Shown in pieces: positions 1 through 11,913 of a stretch of 11,913 bases of DNA. Within the stretch, counting starts at the first letter, position 1. Each line of letters starts with the position of its first letter. Below the pieces are notes generated by a model. The model searched no databases. It saw only the letters and a program-made list of their open reading frames with translations, and was not told where the DNA came from. Source of the stretch: a virus; the IMG/VR virus record IMGVR_UViG_3300033490_000009, positions 1 through 11,913 of that record, one strand, 5' to 3'. A program made the translations under genes and the position numbers.

Positions 1-1561
1 CTATCGCTTCTTTTTGCTTGTCAACCCACTCGTAATACTTGCGCTTAATGTCTTCGTAAAACTGCTTGCGGTAGTTAAACCAATCCTGCCATTGCTTCTT
101 TAAAGTTTCAATGTAGTCAGCCCAGCGACGCTCTATGTTATGCTGGGATTGGAGCATGTGTTGCCGCCACTCAGCCCATTCGTCTTTCTTCGTCTCGGTT
201 TGTTTTCCTTCTTCTCCCGTGACACCTAACCCGCTCAAGTCGCCCTTTAGAAGTTTCTTTGCCAATTCTAACGGGTCTTCGGTCATTTCTTCTTTTTTGC
301 CTTTCGTTTTTGCCTCTTTCGCTTTTTGTTGTCGCTCCCATTCTTCGGCTTCCTTGCGGGCTTTCTCGCCTTCGTCTACGAGCGGGCGCAACTCTTTCGG
401 AAGCATTAACTTAGCAAGCCAACTGCTAATTTTGCCCGTCTTTTCGTCAATCCACCTGATTAGGAGTGCGAGACCTATTGCAACCGCACCAATTCCGAGA
501 ATTATCGGGTTTATTACAGCCGCTATGCCCGCCCCGATAACTTTCAGAATATCCCACAACTTACTGAGCCAGCCAACTAAATTCTTAATCCAATCAACTA
601 CTTTGAGTATGCCTAAGGCTTTTAGACCGTCAGCAACCCATTTAATTCCATGCCCCACAGCGCCAAACAAAACAGCCAGCCCCGCTAACACTGCCGCCAA
701 CATTACAATGTGACTGACAAAAGAAGCGAGGGTCGGGTGTGCTTCTTCAAATGCTTTGAGAGAAGCGACTATCTTGTTAATGCCTTCGGCTATGCGCTCT
801 ACCGTGTCAGCAACATTGCCGAGGTTTTCCGCCGTTAGCGCTTGCAACGACGCTTTCAATGTGCTGAGAGCGTCAGTCATTCGGTCAATCTTATTTGCTG
901 TTTCGTCGCTAACTACTACGCCTAATTCACGATACTTAGCAATGAGATTGTCAATTTCTTGTGCGCCCTCACGAAGAATAGGCAGCAATGTGTAGGCTCG
1001 GCGACCAAACATTTCAAACAAAATTTGTGCTTGCTGGGCTTGGTCTGGGATTTTGGCGATTTCTTTCAGCAAAAGCACGAATTGCTCCAACGGGTCGTTG
1101 GTTTGGGATTGCACAGTTTGACCGAGCACTGCTAAAGCCTTCGTCAACTCATTAACTCTGTTTCCTTTCTCAGCAACCGCTTGGGCGGCTTGTTGGAAGG
1201 CTACTTGCATGCGCATGATAAAAAATGGAATTAACTCAGCGTGGATTTCTAAGTCTTGGAGCATGGCACGGTAGACAGAGTATTTTTCTACAGTCGTGCC
1301 GATTTGAAGGGCTTCCTCACGCAACTGATTGGCGTGGCGTGCGCCAGCAACGGCAAGGGCGGTAAATGTGCCCGCAACGACAGCGCCTATCTTAGCGAGC
1401 GTGTTAAGGGCTTCCTCGTTTTGCTTGAAAAACTGAGTTAGCCGCCCAAAGACCGATTGGGCGTGCTGGCTAAGCCCCTCAAGTTGCTGCTTGACCTGAT
1501 TGACCGCTTGCGAAACATTTTCTTGCGCACGAATTAGGATTTCAACCGTTGCCTCTGCCAT
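1..1561 (-). CDS. Tail tape measure protein, first 520 codons only (gene runs off the left edge of the window)
   Basis: Absent from the supplied ORF track because no stop lies inside the window. Hand translation of the minus strand from the ATG (cat at 1559-1561) stays open to nt 2: MAEATVEILIRAQENVSQAVNQVKQQLEGL...QAQILFEMFGRRAYTLLPILREGAQEIDNLIAKYRELGVVVSDE... It has long helical/coiled-coil-like stretches, a hydrophobic block (LASFVSHIVMLAAVLAGLAVLFGAVG...IGAVAIGLALLIRW) and a K/E-rich segment, all typical of tape measure proteins. GGTGA lies 6 nt upstream of the ATG. The gene follows the tail chaperone genes. The + strand ORFs 135-713, 756-995 and 1256-1441 are antisense shadows of it. 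Confidence 0.8.
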   Translation of the reverse strand, partial: MAEATVEILIRAQENVSQAVNQVKQQLEGLSQHAQSVFGRLTQFFKQNEEALNTLAKIGAVVAGTFTALAVAGARHANQLREEALQIGTTVEKYSVYRAMLQDLEIHAELIPFFIMRMQVAFQQAAQAVAEKGNRVNELTKALAVLGQTVQSQTNDPLEQFVLLLKEIAKIPDQAQQAQILFEMFGRRAYTLLPILREGAQEIDNLIAKYRELGVVVSDETANKIDRMTDALSTLKASLQALTAENLGNVADTVERIAEGINKIVASLKAFEEAHPTLASFVSHIVMLAAVLAGLAVLFGAVGHGIKWVADGLKALGILKVVDWIKNLVGWLSKLWDILKVIGAGIAAVINPIILGIGAVAIGLALLIRWIDEKTGKISSWLAKLMLPKELRPLVDEGEKARKEAEEWERQQKAKEAKTKGKKEEMTEDPLELAKKLLKGDLSGLGVTGEEGKQTETKKDEWAEWRQHMLQSQHNIERRWADYIETLKKQWQDWFNYRKQFYEDIKRKYYEWVDKQKEAI

Positions 1562-1591
1562 GCTATCTCACCACACTCACTTGCCCCCTAC

Positions 1592-1623
1592 GGGCAGAAT
1601 TTATTCGGATAAATTCCAAGCCC
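1592..1623. repeat. AT-rich 8-4-8 palindrome GAATTTAT-TCGG-ATAAATTC (1597-1616) clamped by GGGC/GCCC; copy 1 of 2
   Basis: Perfect 8-bp inverted repeat with a 4-nt spacer, flanked by GGGC (1592-1595) and GCCC (1620-1623). It lies between the stop of the ATG-less frame (1631) and the tape measure start (1561). A 19/20 identical copy is at 5634-5653. Confidence 0.6.
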
Positions 1624-1630
1624 GCCCCGC

Positions 1631-1837
1631 TTAGAATAAGCCTTCCGCTTCCTTTATCAATTCCTGCAGGTTTAGCAAAATCAACTCGGTTTGGGCGAGG
1701 TTGAGGTTGAGGAAATCGTCTATGGAGTTGACTATGCGGTATTTGGCAAGTAGGATAAAGATTTTGGTGATTGAAGCGCCCCCCAACCCTAACCCTTCGG
1801 GTTGAGGGGCGGTAACCTTACGCTTGCTGAAAGAAGC
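1631..1837 (-). CDS. Candidate recoded (+1 frame) C-terminal extension of the tail assembly chaperone (gpG/gpGT-like arrangement); no start codon of its own
   Basis: The minus-strand frame shifted +1 relative to ORF 1818-2072 is open from just after a TAG (1838-1840) to TAA (1631-1633). It reads ASFSKRKVTAPQPEGLGLGGASITKIFILLAKYRIVNSIDDFLNLNLAQTELILLNLQELIKEAEGLF. The C-terminal 45 aa look like genuine amphipathic-helix coding sequence. It has no ATG and no GGTGA Shine-Dalgarno, which the other genes here have. The only in-frame alternative start is a TTG at 1784-1786, buried in a hairpin. It sits exactly where the T part of G/GT lies in siphophages. Confidence 0.3.
   Translation of the reverse strand, partial: ASFSKRKVTAPQPEGLGLGGASITKIFILLAKYRIVNSIDDFLNLNLAQTELILLNLQELIKEAEGLF
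1777..1811 (-). promoter_or_regulatory. 13-bp GC-rich stem-loop starting 6 nt after the chaperone stop codon
   Basis: Minus-strand sequence CGCCCCTCAACCC-GAAGGGTTA-GGGTTGGGGGGCG pairs over 13 bp (one G:U) with a 9-nt loop. No T-tract follows, so it is not a classical terminator. It could act as a recoding stimulator, an RNA stability element or a coupling element. Confidence 0.4.
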
Positions 1838-2072
1838 CTAAGGCGGGGCGCTCAAGCCATTCCTCAAACGAGATTTGCTCTCCCGTTTTGAGTGTGTGAA
1901 TTCGCCAGTCAAGCCACGCTACTGCCTCAATCCGCTTGGCGGGCGGAAGGTCTTCAAGGCTCTCAAGCCCCGTGCCAAACCGCTCACAGAATTCAATCAA
2001 GTCTTTCCAACGCAGCAACTTGAAATCGTCTTCACTCCATTTGCCCGCCAGCGTCATGACTTCCTCGGTCAT
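1818..2072 (-). CDS. Tail assembly chaperone-like protein (84 aa)
   Basis: ORF track. ATG overlaps the upstream stop (ATGA), with GAGGTGA 6 nt upstream. It is small and acidic (MTLAGKWSEDDFKLLRWKDLIEFCERFGTGLESLEDL...) and lies between the major tail and tape measure genes, the position of gpG-type chaperones. The function call rests mainly on position. Confidence 0.55.
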   Translation of the reverse strand: MTEEVMTLAGKWSEDDFKLLRWKDLIEFCERFGTGLESLEDLPPAKRIEAVAWLDWRIHTLKTGEQISFEEWLERPALGFFQQA

Positions 2073-2269
2073 TTCCTATCACCTCGGGCGTCTAATACCT
2101 TCAGAATGTCGTGCCAGCGCTCTCGCACCATAGGCTCGGCAGCACCAACCCCTGTCTTGACCAACTTCCAAAAGTCATGCTCCCTCAAACCTACACGCTT
2201 GCAAAACTCGTCTACGCCTTCCTTCATGGCGGCAATGTAAAGCATTTCACGCTCGTAGCGTGTCAGCAT
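2069..2269 (-). CDS. Small (66 aa) helix-turn-helix-like protein, function unknown
   Basis: ORF track, with AGGTGA 6 nt upstream of the ATG. The segment LTRYEREMLYIAAMKEGVDEFCKRVGLREHDFWKLV follows the sigma70-region-4/LuxR-type HTH spacing (LxxxEREhh...EG.s..Eha..hGhs...h...h). I recognised this by eye and did not search it. Confidence 0.5.
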   Translation of the reverse strand: MLTRYEREMLYIAAMKEGVDEFCKRVGLREHDFWKLVKTGVGAAEPMVRERWHDILKVLDARGDRK

Positions 2270-2284
2270 GTCGGCTCACCTTCA

Positions 2285-3097
2285 CTACTCAATCGAAATG
2301 TTGTTAGCGCTACCTTGCAAAGTGAGCGTCATGACCCACAAATCCGAGCCGCCCGAAACGGGCACTCGGCGGGTAGCAATATGGAAATCGTTTAAGGTCA
2401 AAGTCTTGTTGCCTAACGCAATCGTGATATCTACGGGGGCGGGGGCGTCGGCTGCAAAGTGCGGCGTAAATGGCAGGAAGATTTCGCACGAAAATTCGCA
2501 CTCAGCGACGCCATAGGCTGCGAGGTTAGGCAACCGCTTTTCGTTTGCTGCTTTAGCGGAAAAGTCAGCCGTGACATGCGGGTTGCGGCGCACTCGGAGT
2601 TGAAAGCGGCTAACTTGGTAGTTATTGCCCGCAACGGTCACAACGGCGTCGTGCCAAAGCAGAATGTTGCCGCTAAGGGGTTGAATTGTGGGCGCTGTGC
2701 TGATAAGGCTCGGCTTCATTGCCCGCAGAGAAAGTGTCGCACGCAAGGGCTCGCCGACCCGACCTTCGAGCGAAACTTCGTCTACAAGGCAGCCCAAACC
2801 CTTCACAATGTAGTCGTTTGGCGACCCTGCAACAACGCTGAGGGAAATGTCGTTTTTAATGAGGCTCTCAATGGTCTCTAACTGGCTGTCAACGACGGCG
2901 AATTCGGCGCTAATGGTGGCTTCAACGATTGAGTGATAGAAGAAGACGCCGCCAACGGCTTCCACTCGGCGCACATTCTCGTTAATGTTGATTTCGCCGC
3001 CGCTAACCTTGCCAATTTGAAGCCAGTCGCCCGTTGGCTCTTGCCCCTTTGCGGTTTCGATTTTGTAGCCAAAAATGTCTAACGCATGAGTTTTCAT
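2285..3097 (-). CDS. Major tail (tube) protein candidate (270 aa)
   Basis: ORF track, with GGGGTGA 6 nt upstream. It lies between the neck genes and the chaperone/tape-measure genes. The sequence is beta-rich with no enzymatic motif. The call is positional. Confidence 0.6.
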   Translation of the reverse strand: MKTHALDIFGYKIETAKGQEPTGDWLQIGKVSGGEININENVRRVEAVGGVFFYHSIVEATISAEFAVVDSQLETIESLIKNDISLSVVAGSPNDYIVKGLGCLVDEVSLEGRVGEPLRATLSLRAMKPSLISTAPTIQPLSGNILLWHDAVVTVAGNNYQVSRFQLRVRRNPHVTADFSAKAANEKRLPNLAAYGVAECEFSCEIFLPFTPHFAADAPAPVDITIALGNKTLTLNDFHIATRRVPVSGGSDLWVMTLTLQGSANNISIE

Positions 3098-3120
3098 TCG
3101 CTATCACCCCTAACACTTGC

Positions 3121-3549
3121 CTAAGGCAGCATAGTGACCGCCCGCAGGTTAACTCGTGCGACATGTATGTTGGGCACGGCTTCCTCGATTAGGTAATCGA
3201 CGCTAACAACATAAAGCCCGACAGGTTGCCCCGTCGTGAGCGTGTAGGGCGGCGTCGGGGCGTTTAAAACTGCGTTGACTATCGCAGCGGTTAGGCTGTT
3301 TTTGTCTTCAACCGAGCGGGCGATAACATAGACCTCTATGTTGTCGGTCTCCCGATAAATGTGTTGGTGGCTTTCGGGCACAATTTCGCTACTGACAAGG
3401 GCAATCAAAACGAATGGCTTAGTTATGCGGGTTAGGTCGGTGTCTCGGAGCAAACCCACGCCAATGTCGACCTTGCGACCGCCGCTCACGCTATTGAAGA
3501 CCAGGTCTCTAACCTTTTGCGCAACCTCAAAGGCTGCTAACTGCTTCAT
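3121..3549 (-). CDS. Tail completion/terminator-like neck protein (142 aa)
   Basis: ORF track. ATGA overlap with the upstream gp10-like gene. Its size and position (after the gp10-like gene, before the major tail gene) match HK97 gp11 / DUF3168-type proteins. The call is positional. Confidence 0.5.
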   Translation of the reverse strand: MKQLAAFEVAQKVRDLVFNSVSGGRKVDIGVGLLRDTDLTRITKPFVLIALVSSEIVPESHQHIYRETDNIEVYVIARSVEDKNSLTAAIVNAVLNAPTPPYTLTTGQPVGLYVVSVDYLIEEAVPNIHVARVNLRAVTMLP

Positions 3550-4013
3550 TGCGCAACACCCCGCTTGAATGCTTCGGCTAACTTGGCGATTTGGCTACGC
3601 AGCCACTCGGCGGCTGGCTTCATGAAAGGCTTGCGGATAATGTCGCCGACCTTTTCCCAAGTTGCTGATTTGCCCGACCGCCCTTGCTCAACCCGCTTAG
3701 CGAAAACCCAACCTATGCCTCGCAGGTAAAACCGCAGCGCTCGGGCGTTTACGGGCACGATTATGCGCCTATGACCAAATTCGACATATTGGGCGTATTC
3801 AACATTCGTGTAGACCCGCCCCGTTAAGCCTGAAACTTCGAAGTTGATACTTGCCCGCAGCCTACCCGTGTCTACGGGGGCGTGCTTTTTTGCCTCTCCA
3901 GAAGTGTGGGCGACCAACTTAGCGAATGTGTTGTGAATTTCGTCACGCCCCCGCTTCAACTTGCTAATCGTTTCGTTGACGCCTTTAACAGCGACGCTAA
4001 CCTTAAGCGCCAC
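3546..4013 (-). CDS. HK97 gp10-family phage protein (neck/tail component)
   Basis: Contains the family signature ...KKHAPVDTGRLRASINFEV...VYTNVEYAQYVEFGH... The track extends the ORF to a TTG at 4061. I prefer the in-frame GTG at 4011-4013, which has GAGGTGA 5 nt upstream and overlaps the previous gene by only 11 nt. Confidence 0.85.
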   Translation of the reverse strand: MALKVSVAVKGVNETISKLKRGRDEIHNTFAKLVAHTSGEAKKHAPVDTGRLRASINFEVSGLTGRVYTNVEYAQYVEFGHRRIIVPVNARALRFYLRGIGWVFAKRVEQGRSGKSATWEKVGDIIRKPFMKPAAEWLRSQIAKLAEAFKRGVAQ

Positions 4014-4320
4014 TGGCTTCACCTCGCAGGAAAAGTTTGCTAAAGGTCGGGTAGACTTCAAGTTTGGCGATTTGATAGCGCTTGTAGTTGATTTCGAGAA
4101 TGTCGTCGGTTTGGAATTGAAAGTCGCTAAAGACGAAGTAGACTGCGTCGATAGCGCCTAAGTGGGCGTGCATTAAGGATTGTTTGCCCGCCGAAGGCGT
4201 TACGAGATAGCCTACAGCCGTGCCAGCCATGACTTCTGTTACGCTAACCGTGCCGTCAGCGCTTTCTTCAATCCGTTTGCGCCAAACAACTGCGGGCACA
4301 CGAAGGTTTATCCTCGCCAT
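4003..4320 (-). CDS. Head closure / head-tail adaptor protein (HK97 gp9 / SPP1 gp16-like, 105 aa)
   Basis: ORF track. Size, position and the pattern MARINLRVPAVVWRK...DDILEINYKRYQIAKLE resemble head-tail joining proteins. Confidence 0.6.
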   Translation of the reverse strand: MARINLRVPAVVWRKRIEESADGTVSVTEVMAGTAVGYLVTPSAGKQSLMHAHLGAIDAVYFVFSDFQFQTDDILEINYKRYQIAKLEVYPTFSKLFLRGEASGA

Positions 4321-4799
4321 GCGGAAATCACCTGCCTTGCGATTGGTGGAAGTTGATTGAAATCAACCCGCACTTCGGATTGAATGCTGTCTACAATGTC
4401 GGCGTTAAGCAGCCAAACCGCAAGGTGGGCTACGGCGAGGGCTATGTCGTCGGGAATAGTGCTGTTAAAGCCCGCCAAGTATTCAACGACGGCTTCCCCG
4501 CAATAGGGGTAGGCTAAGACTATGAGCCCAAATTGCTGGGCGTTTAAAATGTCAAGGGCAGTGCCTTCGGGTAAAGCGACGACGCTGATAACTTCGTTGA
4601 CGGGGTGAGCGGAAGTTATGCCCCGCCCGTTGCTGAATGTGATAACTTCGGTTATGTTGCGGGGCTCAAGCGGCACGCCAGTTAGGCGCTCCCAAATCCG
4701 CTCGGCAGCGCCAAGAAAGGCTATGGCTCGGTCTTTCGTCTCCGAGCCCCATTGCACCTCGATTAGGTTGAGCACTTGCGCTTGGGCGGCAGCATTCAT
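4308..4799 (-). CDS. gp6-like head-tail connector protein (163 aa)
   Basis: ORF track. ATGA overlap with the upstream gene, and GGTGA 7 nt upstream of the ATG. The N-terminal helical segment ...KDRAIAFLGAAERIWERLTGVPL... is typical of gp6/SPP1 gp15-like connectors. The position also fits. Confidence 0.6.
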   Translation of the reverse strand: MNAAAQAQVLNLIEVQWGSETKDRAIAFLGAAERIWERLTGVPLEPRNITEVITFSNGRGITSAHPVNEVISVVALPEGTALDILNAQQFGLIVLAYPYCGEAVVEYLAGFNSTIPDDIALAVAHLAVWLLNADIVDSIQSEVRVDFNQLPPIARQVISAWRG

Positions 4800-5251
4800 T
4801 GCGACTTCACCTCTCGCTTAAGCCTTTCAACTAAGTCTTCAAACTCGTCAAACCCGTCTTTGATTTCCGCCTTGAATGCCTCGTAGACCTTCTTAGGCGC
4901 AACGCAGAGATAGACATTGACCTCTATGGCGGGAGAAATGACATATTGGCGGGTTAAGATAATGTGGGTTTCGGCGGGCAACTTAACCGTGTTGTTGACC
5001 GAGTAGAAAGCAAAGACTACATGCCCAAATGCGGTCATGAGTTTCCGTGCGCCAGCGGGCGGAAGTGGCTTCTTTGCTATAAGGCTGTTAAGGATATGCA
5101 CCTTTGCGGTCACAGAGAATAGGTTGAATTGCAAGGTGAGCCAATGCTCGCTATCGCCTGAGAAGACAAACTCAGCGACGGCTTTGAGCAATTCTTCTTT
5201 GTTGCCCTTAAGCCACGCCTTAGCACAATTCAAAAGTTGCTTCACTTTCAT
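4796..5251 (-). CDS. Hypothetical protein (151 aa), first gene of the neck/tail operon
   Basis: ORF track. GCAAGTGT-GTTT-GGTGA-GGCGAC-ATG start context. No motif recognised. It is preceded by a roughly 190-nt leader and a consensus-like promoter. Confidence 0.7.
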   Translation of the reverse strand: MKVKQLLNCAKAWLKGNKEELLKAVAEFVFSGDSEHWLTLQFNLFSVTAKVHILNSLIAKKPLPPAGARKLMTAFGHVVFAFYSVNNTVKLPAETHIILTRQYVISPAIEVNVYLCVAPKKVYEAFKAEIKDGFDEFEDLVERLKREVKSQ

Positions 5252-5446
5252 GTCGCCTCACCAAACACACTTGCCACCCGCCCCACGAAATTTCTCTAAC
5301 GCCTTGACGCAGACATACTTGGTCACTCTCTTGAGTTTCCGTATCACTTTTTCTGAAGCGGGTAAGGTTGTAGATTTCTAAGTCTGAAATCGTGCCCGAT
5401 TTTGACACCATTTTGGGCGATTTCGCCCACATTTTGCCCGCCCCGA

Positions 5447-5475
5447 AATCTACAACCCTATCTAAGGTGTGTCAA
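5447..5475 (-). promoter_or_regulatory. Sigma70-type promoter TTGACA-17 nt-TAGATT reading leftward into the neck/tail operon
   Basis: On the minus strand the -35 TTGACA is the complement of 5470-5475, the spacer is exactly 17 nt, and the -10 TAGATT is the complement of 5447-5452. An A/T-rich UP-like tract (ATTTTAAAGAA) lies just upstream. A GC-rich discriminator (GGGGCGGG) follows. Confidence 0.6.
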
Positions 5476-5517
5476 TTCTTTAAAATGCCCTTTTTCTAAA
5501 AATACCCCAAAGCGTGT

Positions 5518-5539
5518 AGTCTTGGTCATGACCAAGACT
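5518..5539. promoter_or_regulatory. Perfect 22-bp palindrome AGTCTTGGTCA|TGACCAAGACT, candidate operator/activator site
   Basis: Read directly from the sequence. Its dyad (5528/5529) is equidistant from the two flanking promoters: 56 nt to each -35 centre and 79 nt to each -10 centre. Confidence 0.6.
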
Positions 5540-5581
5540 TAGACCTGTAGGGGTTTTTTGGGAAAAAGGGCTTCTAAGAGT

Positions 5582-5610
5582 TTGACACGGGTCGGGTAAA
5601 GTCGTAGATT
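5582..5610 (+). promoter_or_regulatory. Sigma70-type promoter TTGACA-17 nt-TAGATT reading rightward (mirror image of 5447-5475)
   Basis: -35 TTGACA at 5582-5587, a 17-nt spacer, and -10 TAGATT at 5605-5610. It points toward the 3' end of the capsid gene, so any product would be a small or antisense RNA. Confidence 0.45.
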
Positions 5611-5633
5611 TCAGGTCGGGTCGGTCGCAGGCG

Positions 5634-5653
5634 GATTTTATTCGGATAAATTC
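5634..5653. repeat. Copy 2 of the AT-rich 8-4-8 palindrome (GATTTTAT-TCGG-ATAAATTC)
   Basis: 19/20 identical to 1597-1616. It lies just downstream of the capsid terminator on the minus strand. Confidence 0.6.
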
Positions 5654-5668
5654 TACTTGGGCAGGGCT

Positions 5669-5713
5669 AAAAAGTAAAAGCAGGAGCGGGAGCGGTTAGA
5701 CCCCCGCCCCTGC
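5669..5713 (-). terminator. Rho-independent terminator of the major capsid gene
   Basis: Minus strand: GCAGGGGCGGGGG-TCTAACCG-CTCCCGCTCCTGC forms a 13-bp stem (two G:U pairs). It is followed directly by TTTTACTTTTT and begins 37 nt after the capsid stop codon. Confidence 0.8.
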
Positions 5714-5750
5714 GGGCTTCTTTACGGGTCTACCTTAACCTACCTTCCTA

Positions 5751-6929
5751 TCACACAATCTTAACCGCCGAAGGCTCGTCGTAAGGCACGCCAATGAAGT
5801 CAGCACGCATTGTAGTAACGAGAATGTCGGTCTGCTTGACAATATCCCGCTGTGTTTCAACCCTCAAGCCACGCCTGACACCAAGCAGGAAGGCTCGGCG
5901 GTTGAAGACCAAGGCGTGCACGGAAGCGGGCACAAAGGCGCTGACGACGACAGGCTTACCGTAAACCTTAGCCAATTCGCCCGTCACGATAGTCGCCTGT
6001 GCCCCATACTTGTCAACCGTGCTAACTTCTTCCCAACCGACCATTTCGGCAAATTTGGCGGGGTTGACGACAACGACGACTTCGTTAGGGTTGACGCCCA
6101 ACTTGCCCATTTGAGCGCACGCTTGCTGAATGTGTTGCGCTGCGAAAGTGCCAATATCAAGCGAGTGAGCGCCCTTCAAAATCCCATTCCAAACCTTAAG
6201 CAGCGGGTCAGTGCTGGAAGTGTCGCCATTGAGGATAGCATTCTCGAGCGCCTCAGCAAAGGCTTGTGCCAACGCTGCTTGGAATTCGGGCATAATCGCC
6301 ACAATGCTATCCTCGGTAACTTCGTCGGCGACTTCAACGCCCGCAGCCAATTTCTTAGCGTCGAGCGTCAAGCCCTGTGCGGAAGCGTTGCTGAGAGTGA
6401 TAGAAGTTGCGGGCGCAACATAAACGACGCTAATCCCGCTGATAGACAGAGGGATTTTGTAGGTCTGGCTCGGCATGTCGACTTGAGGCAGCAATTGGGC
6501 AAGGCTCGGCTGCAAGCGAATGAGTTGCAGCACTCGGTTGGAGAATGTGGTCGGAATGTAGTTGACTAATTCGCTGCCAGTGACCGCCTTTGTGACTTCG
6601 ACGAAGCGGCGCTCAAGCCAGCCCTCAGTGGGCAAGTGGCGCAACCGCCTAATCGAGGCAAAGACAGTGTAGGCGTCGGCAAGGTCTTGCCACTTAGCAA
6701 TTTGCTCGTCGGTCGCCCGCATGAGCAGGAAGTTTTCAAACTTTTCCTGTGCGGTGTTACCCTCAACCTCAATGCGGGCTCGGGCGCTAACGCCCTTAGA
6801 CAAAATTTCTTCGACATTGGCGACCCGCTCTTCGAGCGCCTTGACTAAGCGCTCGGTCGCCGCAACTTTGTCAGCAATGTTTGAAACGACATTAAGCGTC
6901 TTTTCGACTTCTTGCAGCACTTCCTTCAT
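5751..6929 (-). CDS. Major capsid protein, HK97 fold, with N-terminal coiled-coil (delta/scaffold-like) domain
   Basis: ORF track. GGAGGTG lies 8 nt upstream. The N-terminal ~100 aa are helical (MKEVLQEVEKTLNVVSNIADKVAATERLVKALEERVANVEEIL...). The body resembles HK97-family capsid proteins (...IPTTFSNRVLQLIRLQPSLAQLLP...VDKYGAQATIVTGELAKVYGKPVVVSAFVP...). It directly follows the prohead protease gene. Confidence 0.9.
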   Translation of the reverse strand: MKEVLQEVEKTLNVVSNIADKVAATERLVKALEERVANVEEILSKGVSARARIEVEGNTAQEKFENFLLMRATDEQIAKWQDLADAYTVFASIRRLRHLPTEGWLERRFVEVTKAVTGSELVNYIPTTFSNRVLQLIRLQPSLAQLLPQVDMPSQTYKIPLSISGISVVYVAPATSITLSNASAQGLTLDAKKLAAGVEVADEVTEDSIVAIMPEFQAALAQAFAEALENAILNGDTSSTDPLLKVWNGILKGAHSLDIGTFAAQHIQQACAQMGKLGVNPNEVVVVVNPAKFAEMVGWEEVSTVDKYGAQATIVTGELAKVYGKPVVVSAFVPASVHALVFNRRAFLLGVRRGLRVETQRDIVKQTDILVTTMRADFIGVPYDEPSAVKIV

Positions 6930-6948
6930 GCGGTTAACACCTCCTTAA

Positions 6949-7914
6949 TCACTTGCACAACGCTTTTTCTAATTCTCGGCGCAATTGCTCAAGCGACCTA
7001 CGGATGTAGGCGAGCGGGTTTTCCCACCCGCAAGCCTCAAGCAACTCCAATTCCTCAGGCGTGTAAGAGCGAAACTCGGGCGGCTCTTTATCCGCCTTGC
7101 GGTAATACTTCACAATCGCCCGATAAACTTTCTCTCTGTCTTCCTCGGGGATATCGACGCCGCCTCGAGCACCTAACAGCGCCGCCATGGCAGCGACAAC
7201 GCCCCGCCAAATTGCGTAGGGTTTCCCGTCGATTACATCAACATGCGGGAGTTTGTAAGCGCCAAAGGTGTCGAGCCTCTCGTCGTCAGCCCAGAAAAAC
7301 CGCTTAGCATAGCGGCGCTGCTTTTCCTTGTCTTGCAAATCCTCGTTAGTTTCTACGCCCACATACTTGCGCCACCTTTTCTCGCTTTCGTCAGCATTCC
7401 ACTCTCGGTCGAAATCCTCGTAAAGCGGAAACTCAGCGTCATTGTCGGGCACAATGCCTTTCTTCACTAACTCCATGTCGCTATCACCCTCCTTTTGTAT
7501 CAAGGCTTGCGGATTTGCTGGGAGTGTCACAATCGAAGTTTCAATCCACTCCCATTCCGCATAGGTGTTGCCTTCAATTCGCCTCGGAATGAAACCAATG
7601 CTAAGACCTCGCACAATACCTTCGTCGACAAGTTGCTTGATTTCCTGCGCAAACTGTGTGGAAGCGAAAACGAATTGCACCTTAATTGCGTCGTCGGAGA
7701 TTTCGACATTGACGACTTTACCTATGGGGCGGTTAGGGTCGTGCTGCCAAAGGAGCACGGGGTTAGCGAGGTAGTCTTGCAGGTTAATGCAGCCTTTGGG
7801 GTTTACGATTTCGTTGAGCCTATCCTTCACTGCGGTCGTCGCCACGCCCGAGTAGATTTCCCCGCCGCTATCGGTTTCAATTTGCCTTGTGACCAAATAG
7901 AGCATATCTTTCAT
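6949..7914 (-). CDS. HK97-family prohead serine protease (S78-type) with ~175-aa C-terminal extension
   Basis: The N-terminal ~145 aa carry the family pattern ...NPVLLWQHDPNRPIGKV...GLSIGF...ETSIVTLPANPQA. The C-terminal half (...FGAYKLPHVDVIDGKPYAIWRGVVAAMAALLGARGGVDIPEEDREKVYRAIVKYYRK...LEQLRRELEKALCK) is an extra domain. Confidence 0.9.
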   Translation of the reverse strand: MKDMLYLVTRQIETDSGGEIYSGVATTAVKDRLNEIVNPKGCINLQDYLANPVLLWQHDPNRPIGKVVNVEISDDAIKVQFVFASTQFAQEIKQLVDEGIVRGLSIGFIPRRIEGNTYAEWEWIETSIVTLPANPQALIQKEGDSDMELVKKGIVPDNDAEFPLYEDFDREWNADESEKRWRKYVGVETNEDLQDKEKQRRYAKRFFWADDERLDTFGAYKLPHVDVIDGKPYAIWRGVVAAMAALLGARGGVDIPEEDREKVYRAIVKYYRKADKEPPEFRSYTPEELELLEACGWENPLAYIRRSLEQLRRELEKALCK

Positions 7915-7943
7915 TCCCGCTCACCAAAGACACTTGCGCAAGT

Positions 7944-8023
7944 TGGTGGAGGCGGCGGGAGTTGCACCCGCTTCCGACGCCAGCCACTTTGGGCTTAGGC
8001 GTCGTCAACACTCCGTCGCCCCC
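7944..8023 (-). ncRNA. tRNA-like RNA with tmRNA tRNA-like-domain architecture (acceptor stem with G3:U70, T-arm, encoded CCA; no D-arm or anticodon loop)
   Basis: Minus strand reads GGGGGCG-ACGGAGTGTTGA-CGACGCC-TA-AGCC-CAAAGT-GGCT-GGCGTCG-GAA-GCGGG-TGCAACT-CCCGC-CGCCTCC-A-CCA. This gives a 7-bp acceptor stem, a 5-bp T stem with a 7-nt loop, and a closed 7+4-bp hairpin in place of the anticodon arm. It starts 3 nt after the portal stop codon. Confidence 0.45.
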
Positions 8024-8026
8024 ACC

Positions 8027-9958
8027 TCAATCTACGGGCACTATAGTGCACCTGCAATTAATGACTTCTTCGGGTTGCCCTTCGGGGTCGCAAGGGAAAC
8101 GAAGCCGTGCGCCCGACGGCAGCACGAAGTAGTCGTCTAAGTCAACAATGACGCCTTCCATGTCTCTGTGGCTATCCCTAACTCTTTCGTCGTGGGCGGT
8201 AACCCACATTTTGCGCTTAACGCCTACGGCACGGAGGCTTTCCTCGTAGCCCAAGTTAAGCGCCGCCGTCGTCTCGGTGCGGGCAATCCGCTCAGCACGC
8301 CAAGTTTCGAGGTCGCCCAAAACTTCTTCAACCGCACCGATTAGGTCGCTCCAACCGCCGCCCTCGGCTAAAGCGTCGCCAAGTCTGATTTTGAGCTGCT
8401 CCCATGTCGTCTCGGTAATCCAGCGAATTCGCCGCTTGAATGACATTAGGCGGGCTTTAACTTTGGCGTCATAAATCAACGGGTCGACTTCAACGCCAAA
8501 CGCCTTAGGCGTGTCACGGAGAATGTCTTCTAAGACGGGCAACAAGATTTTTGCCAATTCTTCGGCTTCTTCGTCGAGGTTGAAAAGGAAGTCAACGATA
8601 TCCTTGCGGAAATAGGCATTAAGGTCGGATTTAAGACGGCGGCGCAACGATTGGGCGTAATCCTTGACCGCCTCACGCACAAGGCGCTCGTATCTATCGT
8701 GCAGCCGCAGGAATTTGAGCCACATTTCTTTGTAGGTGCGGGGAATTCGCTTCGTAACAACGACTAACTCGTCGCACTCCTTAGTTTGTTGCTGCGGCTT
8801 TTGTTGAGCGATAGGCACGATATTAAGGTTGCCCCACCAAGCGTCGCCCCACGGAAGCGGGTCTTGGAAGCCTAAAGTTTCACGGGCTTCGTTGATTGTG
8901 ATAATGCCCCTGTCAACGAGATTACCCAACGAATTAGCGACCTCGGCGATATTCTCCTTCAGGGCTTCAACTTGGCTAAGGTCGTAAGCGCACCAAAGTT
9001 GCGGGTTGACTTTGGGGAAAAACTGCGTGTTGAGCGTTTCCTCAATCAGCCTAAGGAGCGGGATTATGGTTTCCCGCCAGAAAATCTTGGTTTGCTCTCG
9101 TGCGTTGGCGTAGTTGGCATACTCGTAAATCCCGACGACGGCGGGCGGCACATTCAAGCAGGCTAAGATTTCTTCACGCAGAATTCGTCGCATTTCAACT
9201 AAGTCGCCCGCCTTGAAGGAAGTGTCAATCGTTTTAGTCTCATAATCCGAGCCCTCGAGCAATAGCCACTTAAACCGTTGACCTCGCCCGTGGCGGCTCT
9301 GAATGCGCTCGATAATGCGCTGTTTCGTCGCTTCGGGCAACGAAGACTTGGTGATTAGGATTGTCAACGGTTGTGCGCCGTGAAACAGGTATTCCGCTAA
9401 CAGGCGGTCGCATTCGTTGATTAGCGTGACTGCGTTTTGAATGGAGTAAAGGAGCGATAAACCTTGCGCCCTCGGGTCAGTCGGGTCGGGCAACTTGAAG
9501 TGCACTATGTCGTCAACCGACACGGTCACAACTTTGTCGGCGGTCATAATTTGGGCTTCCTTGCCGTCAACGGTGAAACTAATGCTGCTTGGGTGAATGT
9601 AGTCAAGCCCGAGAAACCGTCGCCCGACTTTGCGGATAAGCCAGTAGGAGTTTCCGAAGACAATCAAGTCGGTTGCGGTCGTGGCGGTAAAGTCGTTGTT
9701 GCTCATTCCGACGGCGACCGATTTGGCTAAGTGCCCAAAGTTTGGGTCGTCTTCGTTTAACTCAAATTCGCCGTTGTAGACTAAGAGTGGCACGGAAGCG
9801 GCTGAGTTGCTAATGCGGCTTAAGGCAGCCCGCACGATAGGGTTGCGGATAATGTCGGCTAAGGGGCTCGTCGGCATGCTCGTCTCGACGAAGTAAACCT
9901 CTCCCGCAGCGTCTCGGTAAAGCCACTTTTGCACCAACTCACGCAGTTTCTTCAGCAT
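8027..9958 (-). CDS. Portal protein (HK97-type) fused to a C-terminal Mu-F / SPP1 gp7-like head morphogenesis domain
   Basis: The N-terminal ~400 aa are portal-like (...FGNSYWLIRK...LLLEGSDYETKTID...REEILACLNVPPAVVGIYEYANYANAREQTKIFWRETIIPLL...). The C-terminal ~230 aa carry the Mu-F signature ...RAERIARTETTAALNLGYEE...WVTAHDERVRDSHRDMEG...INCRCT. The track start (GTG at 9976) lies inside the GCAAGTGT box. The ATG at 9956-9958 has GGTGA 5 nt upstream and is preferred. Confidence 0.9.
   Translation of the reverse strand: MLKKLRELVQKWLYRDAAGEVYFVETSMPTSPLADIIRNPIVRAALSRISNSAASVPLLVYNGEFELNEDDPNFGHLAKSVAVGMSNNDFTATTATDLIVFGNSYWLIRKVGRRFLGLDYIHPSSISFTVDGKEAQIMTADKVVTVSVDDIVHFKLPDPTDPRAQGLSLLYSIQNAVTLINECDRLLAEYLFHGAQPLTILITKSSLPEATKQRIIERIQSRHGRGQRFKWLLLEGSDYETKTIDTSFKAGDLVEMRRILREEILACLNVPPAVVGIYEYANYANAREQTKIFWRETIIPLLRLIEETLNTQFFPKVNPQLWCAYDLSQVEALKENIAEVANSLGNLVDRGIITINEARETLGFQDPLPWGDAWWGNLNIVPIAQQKPQQQTKECDELVVVTKRIPRTYKEMWLKFLRLHDRYERLVREAVKDYAQSLRRRLKSDLNAYFRKDIVDFLFNLDEEAEELAKILLPVLEDILRDTPKAFGVEVDPLIYDAKVKARLMSFKRRIRWITETTWEQLKIRLGDALAEGGGWSDLIGAVEEVLGDLETWRAERIARTETTAALNLGYEESLRAVGVKRKMWVTAHDERVRDSHRDMEGVIVDLDDYFVLPSGARLRFPCDPEGQPEEVINCRCTIVPVD
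8029..8057 (-). promoter_or_regulatory. Possible promoter TTGCAG-17 nt-TAGATT for the tRNA-like RNA, embedded in the portal 3' end
   Basis: On the minus strand the -35-like TTGCAG is the complement of 8052-8057, the spacer is 17 nt, and TAGATT is the complement of 8029-8034. That is the same -10 hexamer as the two promoters at 5447-5610. G1 of the tRNA-like element lies 5 intervening nt downstream. Confidence 0.3.
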
Positions 9959-10010
9959 GTCAATCACCAACAACACTTGCGCCCCGCTAAGTGAGTTTGG
10001 TGATTGGCGA

Positions 10011-10238
10011 ATGAGCGAGCGAGCGAAATTGTTTGTGCTGATTTATGCAATTACCGCTATTGTGTTGCTTGAAGCGATAGCGCTGTGGAAGGGCATAGAC
10101 GGCGTGGCGCTGTCGGCGACTATAGCGGCTATCGCTTTATTAGCCCCGTCGCCGCTCAAGTTTTTGCAGGTGGGCAACATTAAGGTTGAAAAGTTGGGCA
10201 AGGGTAACGGAGACGACAGCGGCGAGGCGGGGAGGTGA
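10011..10238 (+). CDS. Small two-TM membrane protein (75 aa), function unknown, in the position usually held by the small terminase
   Basis: MSERAKLFVLIYAITAIVLLEAIALWKGIDGVALSATIAAIALLAPSPLKF... has two hydrophobic helices and an acidic/Gly tail. The ATG at 10011 has GGTGA 7 nt upstream. The track start at 9957 has no Shine-Dalgarno and overlaps the portal start. Its stop TGA lies inside the terminase Shine-Dalgarno. Confidence 0.5.
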   Translation: MSERAKLFVLIYAITAIVLLEAIALWKGIDGVALSATIAAIALLAPSPLKFLQVGNIKVEKLGKGNGDDSGEAGR

Positions 10239-10243
10239 GGGGT

Positions 10244-11653
10244 ATGGCTGCTAAGCGGCAGGTTAGGGTTGAAGCCCCCGCAATCGATTTCTCCCGCTAC
10301 CGCAGCATAGCCGATTTCGCCGAAGATTGCTTGTTTGTGTTTGAAAACAACCGCAAGCAGCGGATTAAGTTGACGCCATATCAGCGGCGCTGGCTGCGTG
10401 AAGTTGAAGACCCCCGCTGGAAGGTTGTTGTGATTTGCGTGCCTAAGCGGGTCGGTAAGTCGCTTTTCAGCGCAATCGTGGCGGTCTATTGGGCGCTGGC
10501 ACGAATGGGCGCTACGGTCGTTGTCTTGAGCACTTCCGAGAAACACGCAAGTAGCGTGACCTTCAAGTATGTGCGCCAGTTTTGTCGGGTTAGCGACCAA
10601 GTCGCCGCTGAAGTTGCTACGCTGGCGCAAAACAAGGTCGAGTTTCGCAACGGAAGCGTGATTAGAGCCGTGCCATGCACGGTTGAAGCGGTTGCGGGAA
10701 TTGCGACCGATTTGCTCATAATCGACGAGTTGGCGCTGATTGACGACGAAGAAGTTGTGCAAATCGCTATGAGCCAAACTGAGAAAGAAGACGCTAAAGT
10801 GCTGATAACCTCGACCGCCTCGGAGCACGGGCACTTGCTCCATAGGCTCTATTTGAAGCACATTAACGGGGAAGCCGAGAAAGAGCGGTTGCGGTTTATC
10901 TATCACGGGGCGGAAATCTATGCTGAGCACCCGTTTATCACGCCCGAGTGGCTCGAGGAAAGGCGGCGGCAAATGCCTGAGTTTCTGTTTCGGCAGTATC
11001 ACCTTAATGAGTGGGGCGTTGCGGGCGAAAAGGTCTTCAAGCCCGAGTTGGTCGAAGCGGCGGTTAGAGACTATCCGCTGCCGCTGCCAATCGAGCGGAT
11101 TGAGGAAGTGTTGGGCGAGAAAGTTGTGGGCTTTGTGTTTACCGCTGCGATTGACCGAGCGTTGCCTATGAGTAAGCACGGCGACCGCACGGTCGGCTGC
11201 GTCGTGGCTAATTGTTTGACTGAGGGCGGCAAGGAAAAGTTAGTCGTCGTCGACTTAAAGGTTTTCCCGACGGGCGTCGCCGAAGAAATTAAAGCGTGGC
11301 TAATGCAAGTTGCCAGCCAATATTCGCTAACGAGCGTCGTGCTTGAAACCTATCAGGCTTATGACTTATATGCTTGGTGCAAGCAGCGTGGGTTGCCCGC
11401 AAAGTTAGAGCACGCTACGAGAGAAGCCCAACTCGCTGCGTTTCCCGTGCTGATTATGGCGTTTGAGCAAGGCAAGATTATCATTCCCCGCCACGAATTG
11501 CTGATTGATGAATTGCTTGCGTTGGAGCGCACTAACGGCGGAAAGTTTAAGGCAGGGCAAGGCAAACACGACGATACCGTTTTCGCTCTCCTTTGGGCGG
11601 TCTACGAGGCAATCAAGTTTTCCCCGTCTCGGGCGGATATCACGATTATTTGA
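10244..11653 (+). CDS. terL: Terminase large subunit
   Basis: Walker A-like VPKRVGKS, Walker B-like DLLIIDELA, and a C-terminal RNase-H-like nuclease region with ...GKHDDTVFALLWAVY. The track start (GTG at 10235) sits inside the GGAGGTGA Shine-Dalgarno. The ATG at 10244 is 5 nt after it. Confidence 0.9.
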   Translation: MAAKRQVRVEAPAIDFSRYRSIADFAEDCLFVFENNRKQRIKLTPYQRRWLREVEDPRWKVVVICVPKRVGKSLFSAIVAVYWALARMGATVVVLSTSEKHASSVTFKYVRQFCRVSDQVAAEVATLAQNKVEFRNGSVIRAVPCTVEAVAGIATDLLIIDELALIDDEEVVQIAMSQTEKEDAKVLITSTASEHGHLLHRLYLKHINGEAEKERLRFIYHGAEIYAEHPFITPEWLEERRRQMPEFLFRQYHLNEWGVAGEKVFKPELVEAAVRDYPLPLPIERIEEVLGEKVVGFVFTAAIDRALPMSKHGDRTVGCVVANCLTEGGKEKLVVVDLKVFPTGVAEEIKAWLMQVASQYSLTSVVLETYQAYDLYAWCKQRGLPAKLEHATREAQLAAFPVLIMAFEQGKIIIPRHELLIDELLALERTNGGKFKAGQGKHDDTVFALLWAVYEAIKFSPSRADITII

Positions 11654-11824
11654 AAACTGGCGGCAAAAACCGCAATTTTCGACTTGACAGCCCCGCAACT
11701 TTGCGACACAGTGAAATGTGGTTGGCGGTGTAGGAAGGTTAGGAAAACGGCGGGTTTTTGGCTGATTTTGGGCTATTTTTCTTCAACCTTCACCGCCAAA
11801 TGCCTGTTGTAGTTGCCCAGTGAG

Positions 11825-11847
11825 CCAAGAAGCCCGCAAGGGGCGGG
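11825..11847 (-). terminator. Terminator-like hairpin CCCGC-CCCTT-GCGGG-CTTCTT, second copy of the module at 5703-5723
   Basis: Minus strand CCCGCCCCTTGCGGGCTTCTTGG is nearly identical to + strand 5703-5723 (CCCGCCCCTGCGGGCTTCTTT). It is oriented to stop a leftward transcript entering from beyond the right edge. One minus-strand frame has a TAG at 11900-11902. Confidence 0.3.
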
Positions 11848-11913
11848 ACAAAACATGTGACGGCAAAACGGAGGAGCGTGACATTCAACCCGACAAAGGC
11901 TATTTCCATCGGG

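Follow-up and report, generated by a model that had tools for sequence, protein, structure and literature searches.

The viral record IMGVR_UViG_3300033490_000009 of the IMG/VR database carries, between the genes of its portal protein and its prohead protease, an 80-nt RNA element, which is encoded on the minus strand of the 11,913-nucleotide stretch analysed here (positions 1 to 11,913 of the record, called the window in the following; coordinates refer to it unless another locus is named). The RNA is the reverse complement of positions 7944-8023. This element is a tag-less mini-tmRNA, that is a transfer-messenger RNA (tmRNA) consisting of the tRNA-like domain (TLD) only; it is of the type of the mycobacteriophage DS6A, found here in a new phage lineage and at a new genomic position. 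The original prediction had already read it as a miniature tmRNA, and this identity holds because the element aligns end to end with the Rfam tmRNA family RF00023, because it is conserved with compensatory changes among its relatives and because it is homologous to the element of DS6A. That it represents a selected RNA gene of the TLD type is held with high confidence.

The 80-nt sequence originally quoted for this RNA is the exact reverse complement of 7944-8023, so that sequence and coordinates stand unchanged. If the acceptor and T stems are forced, the RNA folds with -40.2 kcal/mol into a 7-bp acceptor stem, 12 unpaired nucleotides, a 7+4-bp hairpin, a GAA linker, a 5-bp T stem with the 7-nt loop UGCAACU and a final ACCA. 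The 5' strand of the acceptor stem, GGGGGCG (8017-8023), is identical in all relatives and pairs with the 3' strand CGCCUCC (7948-7954), in which a single G-C to G-U change was found, in L003. Within this stem G3 (8021) is opposite to U70 (7950). It is followed by the D-loop-like single strand ACGGAGUGUUGA (8005-8016), which was aligned to the tmRNA D-loop consensus cuGGaUUCGA, and by a closed, helix-2-like hairpin (7975-8004; 7 bp, a 2-nt bulge, 4 bp and a 6-nt loop), which replaces the mRNA-like and pseudoknot core. The T arm GCGGG-UGCAACU-CCCGC (7955-7971) has a G where U55 is expected and is identical throughout the clade described below, as is the A73-C-C part of the discriminator A73 and CCA (7944-7947). 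In the unconstrained minimum-energy fold (-41.7 kcal/mol, z = -3.1 versus shuffles) the acceptor stem and the long hairpin are retained, whereas the T arm is lost and the D-loop pairs with the T-arm bases instead. Of the fold initially described, acceptor stem and long hairpin are thus seen both ways, and the T arm only with forced stems, which means that the T arm rests on homology and not on thermodynamics.

In a scan of 7800-8200, positions 1-374 of the RF00023 model span exactly 7944-8023 on the minus strand (46.2 bits, E 2.5e-17), and R1, a model of the window clade, scores 111.5 bits. In the RF00023 alignment, 308 internal model positions are deleted and 14 nt stand in their place. The posteriors are high over model positions 1-28 and 337-374, and acceptor stem and T arm are covered as well as the conserved junction GAC...GGA at the foot of helix 2. 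Neither a resume codon nor a tag reading frame is present in this alignment and in the fold, the hairpin being too short to hold a tag frame. Likewise, the pseudoknots PK1-PK4 are absent from the alignment and from both folds, which have one closed hairpin between D-loop and T arm. Compared with bacterial tmRNA (SsrA), the element therefore has in common the acceptor stem with G3:U70, A73 with its CCA, the helix-2 junction and the T arm, to which a stemless D-loop is added as a further feature of a tRNA-like domain, and it differs in having neither a resume codon nor a tag frame nor any pseudoknot, in retaining only a small part of helix 2, in G55 of the T loop and in a D-loop without the conserved GG. 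The similarity to the 3' end of E. coli ssrA, noted in the original prediction, is correct: the last 32 nt of the element are identical at 28 of 32 positions, and the two differences in the acceptor strand are compensated (GGGGCUG/CAGCUCC to GGGGGCG/CGCCUCC). According to model R1 the element is single-copy in the window as well as in 16 kb of the source contig (L284); the window belongs to a metagenome contig of 29.9 kb in ENA.

Other structured RNAs were considered as well. A tRNA-Ala is excluded by the missing D stem, by the 6-nt loop CAAAGU in place of a 7-nt anticodon loop and by the negative ARAGORN result. Within Rfam, the tmRNA model outscores the other members of its clan on this element. 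RAGATH-21 (RF03097; 19.0 bits versus a gathering score of 70.3, E 0.65) and the tymovirus tRNA-like structure (RF00233; 17.7 bits versus 40, E 0.2) were rejected; both contain a T-arm-like hairpin with the loop UGCAAyU, which amounts to a weak resemblance only, and the closing stem of RAGATH-21 is about 10 bp long.

A search of IMG/VR with the portal protein yielded 40 loci, 12 of them at about 90% portal identity and 28 more distant. The element is present in all 12 close loci, at 90-99% identity, and in none of the 28 loci with a portal identity of 23-46%. In L011, a locus of 45% portal identity, a plain AT-rich spacer of 65 nt is located in its place. The third codon positions of portal, protease and capsid genes are 64-78% identical to those of the relatives and the second positions 94-98%, so that the RNA, with its 90-99%, evolves like a constrained site. 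This is the strongest argument against a relic. G3:U70 and A73 are unchanged in all 11 distinct sequences of the clade, and the 5' acceptor strand, the entire T arm and the GUUGAC junction are invariant. A comparison of the portal-protease spacers of related phages, suggested along with the original prediction, showed the stems to be conserved in the 12 loci, with compensatory changes in helix 2, where two pairs are changed on both sides (G-C to A-U and A-U to G-C) and 99.2% of the cells are paired. Overall, 99.6% of the cells are paired as compared to 40-69% with the partners slid; the covariation is modest and the clade narrow.

The element was furthermore assembled independently in ENA (ERZ27247216), in Logan (SRR10916987) and in several JGI datasets, which rules out a chimera. 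Purifying selection together with these assemblies from several metagenomes disposes of the earlier suggestion that a recombination relic or an assembly artefact is present. The metagenome scan gave five copies, without new variation and without a more divergent member of the clade. Among the isolate phages of INPHARED, a 601-nt region containing the element is unmatched, and the matches to the 80-mer are solely fragments of the 3' end of ssrA (attP type) or full phage tmRNA genes. In 185,579 species genomes, the relatives of the portal protein do not exceed 34% identity and all belong to metagenome-assembled genomes of assorted phyla.

At the borders of the element, two features differ in their constancy. 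The genome-encoded CCA, described before as part of the RNA, is indeed present in this phage, whereas it is not constant: a complete ACCA is found in only 4 of 12 distinct sources (this phage, L003, L006 and L020), the others having ACC-U. The leader GGU (8024-8026, minus strand), in turn, is invariant in 13 of 13 sequences and is complementary to A73-C74-C75, so that the stem can be lengthened to 10 bp. The GGU is kept despite three distinct upstream arrangements, and the 10-bp stem appears in the computed fold. This GGU/ACC pairing is absent from the other TLD-only lineages discussed below and is therefore specific to the clade and not a property of the family. Due to it, the exact 5' processing site is uncertain.

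One of the upstream arrangements is an insert of about 257 nt between portal gene and RNA, which occurs in six relatives (L009, 3910-4176; L002, L003, L004, L014 and L020) and of which a remnant of about 40 nt is seen in L005 and L008. The insert encodes a conserved Cys-rich open reading frame (ORF) of about 85 aa without a PHROG match. The ORF extends into the RNA and terminates there in one of two different frames, its stop codon being either a UGA of the D-loop or a UAA of the helix-2 bulge, and cleavage at G1 would strip this ORF of its stop codon. In L005, L008 and L009 a 16-nt direct repeat surrounds the element: AAGTGCGAATGGTGGG lies just before and overlaps G1, AAGTGTGAATGGTGGG lies after it, and the downstream copy is the ribosome-binding region of the protease gene. 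This repeat could be a trace of the insertion of the element.

An RNA of this kind has been listed before, so that the novelty implied by the original prediction was overstated. A tmRNA of "Mycobacterium phage DS6A (TLD only)" was included by Hudson, Lau & Williams in 2014 (PMC4131195; tmRNA Website tmID 11587), and the database paper of Williams in 2025 repeats this entry and adds plastid tmRNAs devoid of a coding sequence (CDS-less; PMC11915505). The DS6A element was located at 28478-28560 of JN698994 (L042:8478-8560), where it is unannotated in GenBank. It lies 10 nt beyond gp33 on the same strand and 119 nt ahead of gp34. RF00023 gives 43.2 bits, which is also below threshold, and model R1 gives 35.1 bits (E 8.5e-6). 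Both elements are phage genes of 80-83 nt and are built alike: the acceptor stem contains G3:U70, the D-loop is unpaired, helix 2 is a single closed hairpin, and a T arm and A73 are present. In contrast, there is little sequence similarity beyond the positions conserved in tmRNA (acceptor stem, helix-2 junction and the frame of the T arm), phage and host belong to another lineage, and the DS6A element lies between gp33 and the DNA polymerase III gene and not in a head operon. Furthermore, it has the canonical T loop UUCGAUU, ends in ACUA and is without the pairing of a GGU leader. With the same architecture and little sequence similarity, the window clade represents a second lineage of this known kind, independent of that of DS6A. 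Beyond DS6A, no further description of TLD-only phage RNAs was found in the literature searched.

Several known systems share parts of this architecture. Full-length tmRNAs are also borne by phages (cluster C mycobacteriophages, phage G, the two-piece tmRNAs of Melnitz and Mosig; PMC4131195, PMC9004378), and those found in IMG/VR carry the exact T arm of the element, GCGGGUGCAACUCCCGCC. They differ by having a tag frame and pseudoknots, a score of 64-127 bits and the canonical D-loop AGGUUCGA. In the permuted phage tmRNA of L099 the acceptor stem is the same and the 3' 32 nt are identical to the element at 31 of 32 positions, so that the nearest relatives found for this TLD among the viral sequences compared are phage-borne tmRNAs. 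CDS-less tmRNAs of jakobid mitochondria and Mallomonadaceae plastids (genes of about 65 bp), which are thought to retain a rescue role, are by their description likewise natural tmRNA derivatives cut down to about the TLD, without a tag frame (PMC11915505). In contrast to the viral element, they are vertically inherited and presumed to be the sole rescue RNA of their organelle and not an extra copy. The TLD RNAs engineered for crystal and cryo-EM studies, and the dominant-negative TLD of Mao et al. (2009), have a loop-closed helix 2 as well; such RNAs bind SmpB and enter the ribosome with EF-Tu (PMC3968760). Being artificial, their behaviour is a lead for the RNA described here and not a test of it.

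A different kind of similarity is seen to the attachment-site fragments of the ssrA 3' end in SopEPhi, CP-1639 and P4-like Klebsiella prophages, which have the part from T loop to CCA in common with the element (85-88% over 34 nt). Such fragments are generally found at prophage ends or beside an integrase gene, and of the attP-type matches in INPHARED one falls within a region annotated as integrase and several are close to the end of their record. They contain the 3' part of ssrA only (nt 47-80), whereas D-loop, helix 2 and the two acceptor strands are all present in the element, which is placed in a head operon. An attP-type fragment is thus ruled out by both acceptor strands, by the portal-protease position and by the lack of an integrase gene in the window.

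With respect to the distribution of such RNAs, a scan of IMG/VR with an 18-mer of the T arm as query matched 115 stretches. It recovered TLD-only RNAs at L064:2435-2517, L049:3690-3772, L074:2519-2608 and L057:700-796 / L076, which, including the near-copy L127 of L064 and L139 alongside L049, represent four sequence types. All four keep G3:U70 and A73, neither of which was required by the query. Furthermore, full-length phage tmRNAs with a G55 T loop, tRNAs and other small RNAs with a T arm were obtained. The exact T arm occurs in the permuted tmRNAs of L059, L099, L066, L108, L085, L068, L043, L077 and L062, in the one-piece tmRNAs of L107, L063 and L100 and in tRNAs of L048, L071 and L105.

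A generic scan of IMG/VR used the pattern acceptor, gap, T arm and acceptor; the tRNAs reported by ARAGORN were removed and odd tRNA-Ala-like cases were set aside. This resulted in at least about 40 distinct TLD-only candidates of 70-100 nt in unrelated viral contigs (loci L157-L235), for example L166:1209-1285, L168, L172, L177, L186, L201, L202, L204, L216, L222 and L224. Most of the candidates listed have a D-loop of the GGUUUCGA type, one helix-2 hairpin and a GAC or GAA linker. In 45 aligned sequences the two T-stem pairs that the pattern had left free are always paired, in eight stem variants. Several candidates lie within same-strand tRNA clusters. No common genomic context emerged from their neighbours, which are diverse (RNR, HNH, phosphoesterase and HTH proteins). 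The class of TLD-only RNAs thus seems to be widespread, DS6A being the only member described in the literature searched.

Some recurrent properties of these lineages were observed in addition. Among the 39 TLD-only lineages listed (L166, L186, L201, L216, L172, L229 and L197 are examples), an upstream ORF on the same strand ends between -12 and +17 nt from G1 in 22, and in eight a UAG stop codon shares its G with G1; UA ahead of G1 is common, which could have other causes. In such cases excision of the RNA would take away the stop codon of the upstream ORF, a pattern that is suggestive, the 39 lineages not being independent. The helix-2 hairpins are often asymmetric: the lower stem is followed by a bulge rich in A, which is confined to the 5' side (UAA, GAAAA, UAAAA), and by a short capped stem, as seen in DS6A (L042:8478-8560), L172, L209, L160, L186 and L218 and at 7975-8004 of the window. 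This shared layout hints at a conserved structural or binding feature.

Besides TLD-only RNAs, even smaller minihelix-like sequences recur, of 44 nt in L053:1271-1314, L065, L119, L055, L097, L051 and L056 and of 48 nt in L050:7185-7232 and L110. They consist of a 6-7-bp acceptor-like stem, a linker of 9-14 nt and the same T arm, end in ACGA and are without a G:U pair; those of L053 and L050 have no Rfam match at the gathering threshold. A nearly identical 81-nt sequence, which ends in the same T arm and is without a closing stem of the acceptor type, is present at L075:308-388 and L081:908-988 and in about ten more loci (L045, L052, L082, L090, L093, L095, L103, L104, L112 and L113). It also has no Rfam match at the gathering threshold.

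In the window, the element is embedded in a unit of head genes, all on the minus strand. Upstream lies a gene for a portal-MuF fusion protein (8027-9976; Pfam Phage_portal 1.4e-54 and Phage_Mu_F 2.9e-17), whose stop codon TGA (8029-8027) is 3 nt ahead of G1. The gene of the prohead serine protease (6949-7914; Peptidase_S78 1.1e-10) starts 29 nt beyond the element and is followed by the gene of the HK97-type major capsid protein (5751-6929; Phage_capsid 2.2e-16), the final gene of the unit. Downstream of it, an intrinsic terminator at 5680-5713 on the minus strand, a 14-bp stem with ten G-C pairs followed by a T run, closes the unit. A promoter of its own had been proposed for the RNA, TTGCAG-17-TAGATT at 8029-8057 (minus strand), which did not find support. 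This site matches the consensus at 7 of 12 positions, lies within the last portal codons and is missing from the output of the promoter scan, its -10 hexamer varies among the relatives (TAGACT, TGGATT), and in six of them it is about 257 nt upstream of the element. No sigma-70-like promoter was detected in 7600-8400, and no terminator was found directly after the element. Lacking a credible promoter of its own and a terminator behind it, and with a strong terminator after the capsid gene, the element appears to be co-transcribed with portal, protease and capsid genes.

The gene of the large terminase TerL (10244-11653) is located on the opposite strand and, together with an ORF of 75 aa (10011-10238), diverges from the portal gene. 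Portal, protease, capsid and TerL genes establish that the element stands in a phage context. Only about 35 nt separate the terminase-side and the portal units, and no sigma-70-like promoter was found in this gap. The remaining window consists of the head-tail connector and the tail module. Annotation with Pfam and PHROG revealed no integrase among the genes of the window, and no defence or counter-defence genes adjoin the element. Beyond the capsid gene, a non-coding gap of about 500 nt (5252-5750) holds the strong terminator at 5713-5680. Within this gap, promoter-like TTGACA-17-TAGATT sites are present on both strands (5475-5447 minus, 5582-5610 plus), in or beside the inverted repeats 5478-5508/5550-5580 and 5363-5378/5445-5460. 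The gap may represent a control region for the tail genes.

Trans-translation is the main ribosome-rescue pathway in bacteria and is pursued as an antibiotic target. For the mini-tmRNA, a competition with the tmRNA of the host is proposed, a mechanism to which we give about an even chance. The RNA would be transcribed late, within the portal-protease-capsid message, and would be released by tRNA-processing enzymes of the host, by RNase P at or near G1 and by 3' trimming and CCA repair on the other side. Free RNA would then be bound by host SmpB and would probably be charged by alanyl-tRNA synthetase (AlaRS) via G3:U70 and A73. Since it has no resume codon and no tag frame, the mini-tmRNA could not complete trans-translation and would be a competitor of the host tmRNA, for SmpB and possibly also for stalled ribosomes. 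The outcome would be less tagging and degradation in late infection, and as a side effect the excision would split the polycistronic message, the cut falling between its portal and protease parts.

The element retains the determinants known for these partners from the literature, namely G3:U70 and A73 for AlaRS, the acceptor stem and T arm for RNase P and 3' processing, and the elbow of the TLD with the helix-2 junction for SmpB. In tmRNA, G3:U70 and A73 are the determinants of AlaRS, maturation is carried out by RNase P, the TLD elbow is the binding site of SmpB, and a complex of TLD, SmpB and EF-Tu enters the ribosome (PMC3968760). Furthermore, according to the account of Mao et al. (2009) given in PMC4131195, a TLD-only RNA, whether chargeable or not, strongly inhibits the tmRNA of E. 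coli, "perhaps by titrating SmpB". Going by this account, the engineered E. coli TLD appears to be the sole experimental precedent for an inhibition.

A number of observations weigh against this interpretation. The RF00023 score stays 0.8 bit short of the gathering score of 47, and Rfam at its gathering threshold accordingly gives no match to the element; ARAGORN reports neither a tRNA nor a tmRNA there. The covariance-model check proposed at the outset thus succeeded with respect to the end-to-end alignment and failed at the level of default detection, and the shortfall explains why the element is missed by a default Rfam scan, the same reason being given for ARAGORN. In the D-loop GUUGA is invariant, whereas the canonical GG is not conserved (ACGCAG, ACUGAG, ACGAAG), and the T loop has a G at the position of U55. 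Contacts between D- and T-loop have been reported as needed for SmpB binding (PMC3968760). The objection of G55 is softened by full-length phage tmRNA genes carrying the same T loop. The pairing of GGU and ACC could shift or hinder the cleavage by RNase P. A degenerate pattern of the whole element gave no matches in 185,579 species genomes and so pointed to no host whose tmRNA and SmpB the RNA would have to mimic. Finally, the benefit that a phage would draw from blocking ribosome rescue late in infection is not obvious.

Instead of inhibiting rescue, the RNA might take part in it. A charged mini-tmRNA together with SmpB would enter stalled ribosomes and accept the nascent chain, which either peptidyl-tRNA hydrolase or a back-up factor would then release untagged; ribosomes would be freed and truncated phage proteins spared. 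Such a role has been proposed for the CDS-less tmRNAs of organelles, and the thought that those of jakobids and Mallomonadaceae keep a rescue function (PMC11915505) is in favor of it, as is the conservation of G3:U70, A73, T arm and helix-2 junction. We nevertheless regard it as unlikely. The neighbouring genes provide no release mechanism, the genome often lacks the terminal A of the CCA, and the sole experiment on such an RNA, as related in PMC4131195, shows an inhibition of tmRNA which is independent of chargeability. A further explanation dispenses with any function of the excised RNA: the fold would merely serve as a cleavage site for RNase P and the 3' enzymes, separating the portal message from the protease-capsid message and thereby setting different stabilities and yields. 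The position of the element within an operon, where 3 nt separate it from the portal stop codon and 29 nt from the protease gene, without a promoter or terminator of its own, would fit well, and among the matches listed TLD-only genes elsewhere often abut an upstream stop codon. However, a minimal helix of acceptor and T arm would be enough for RNase P, yet the AlaRS pair, GUUGA and the helix-2 junction are invariant; RNAs of the same kind occur in unrelated contexts of other phages, including tRNA clusters, and for L011, the relative of 45% identity, a plain spacer of 65 nt is sufficient. An excision of the RNA would punctuate the message in this way in any case, which leaves the kept alanine identity pair and the SmpB-side features unexplained. 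As an explanation of its own it is therefore improbable, and it is not mutually exclusive with the proposed competition for host factors.

The RNA might also be directed against another host factor that recognises tRNA(Ala)- or tmRNA-like ends, such as RNase R, the nuclease of a defence system or a toxin that attacks acceptor ends. Several RNA architectures with a T arm recur in viral contigs (the 44-48-nt minihelices and the 81-nt RNA), phage-borne tRNA or tmRNA fragments acting against host nucleases have a precedent in the AcrIIIA1-RNAs (PMC11662646), and SmpB-like domains occur in predicted defence systems (PMC11090510). On the other hand, no defence or counter-defence genes adjoin the element, and its tmRNA-specific features suit SmpB and AlaRS better than an unspecified target, so that we consider this quite improbable. 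Least credible of all is a remnant without function, be it a decayed ssrA of phage or host, an attP-type fragment or an assembly chimera of ssrA ends. It is true that the attachment site of temperate phages often consists of the 3' 30-35 nt of ssrA, the INPHARED matches are all of the attP type or full phage tmRNA genes, and the 3' 32 nt are nearly those of the permuted tmRNA in L099. This reading is disfavoured by a conservation far above that of the synonymous sites of the neighbouring genes, by the compensatory changes in the hairpin, by the presence of both complementary acceptor halves, by the location in a head-gene operon, in a window that contains no integrase gene, and by the independent assemblies in ENA, Logan and several JGI datasets.

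Taken as such, a TLD-only phage RNA is already known from DS6A and has barely been studied; new are the lineage and the genomic position. The wider prevalence of TLD-only RNAs is a more interesting lead than the single locus. Since ARAGORN and the gathering threshold of Rfam miss the element, and the copy of DS6A is unannotated in GenBank, there is a gap in annotation, and as at least dozens of such RNAs were found in viral contigs unrelated to each other, the strategy is probably commoner among phages than the one published example suggests. It is conceivable, if rather doubtful, that tag-less TLD RNAs form a large and essentially unannotated "anti-tmRNA" class of phages, which would have arisen by repeated internal deletion of tmRNA genes and would disable or re-route the trans-translation of the host. 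In the head operon described here, the excision would truncate the portal message at its stop codon or, in six relatives, the Cys-rich ORF, so that the RNA would itself create the (near-)non-stop mRNAs whose fate it would control.

For the phage, a tRNA-processing site inside the head-gene message could alter the ratio of portal to capsid expression. If true, a natural phage RNA which blocks or diverts trans-translation would show how viruses handle the quality control of their host and would supply ready-made inhibitors of this pathway.

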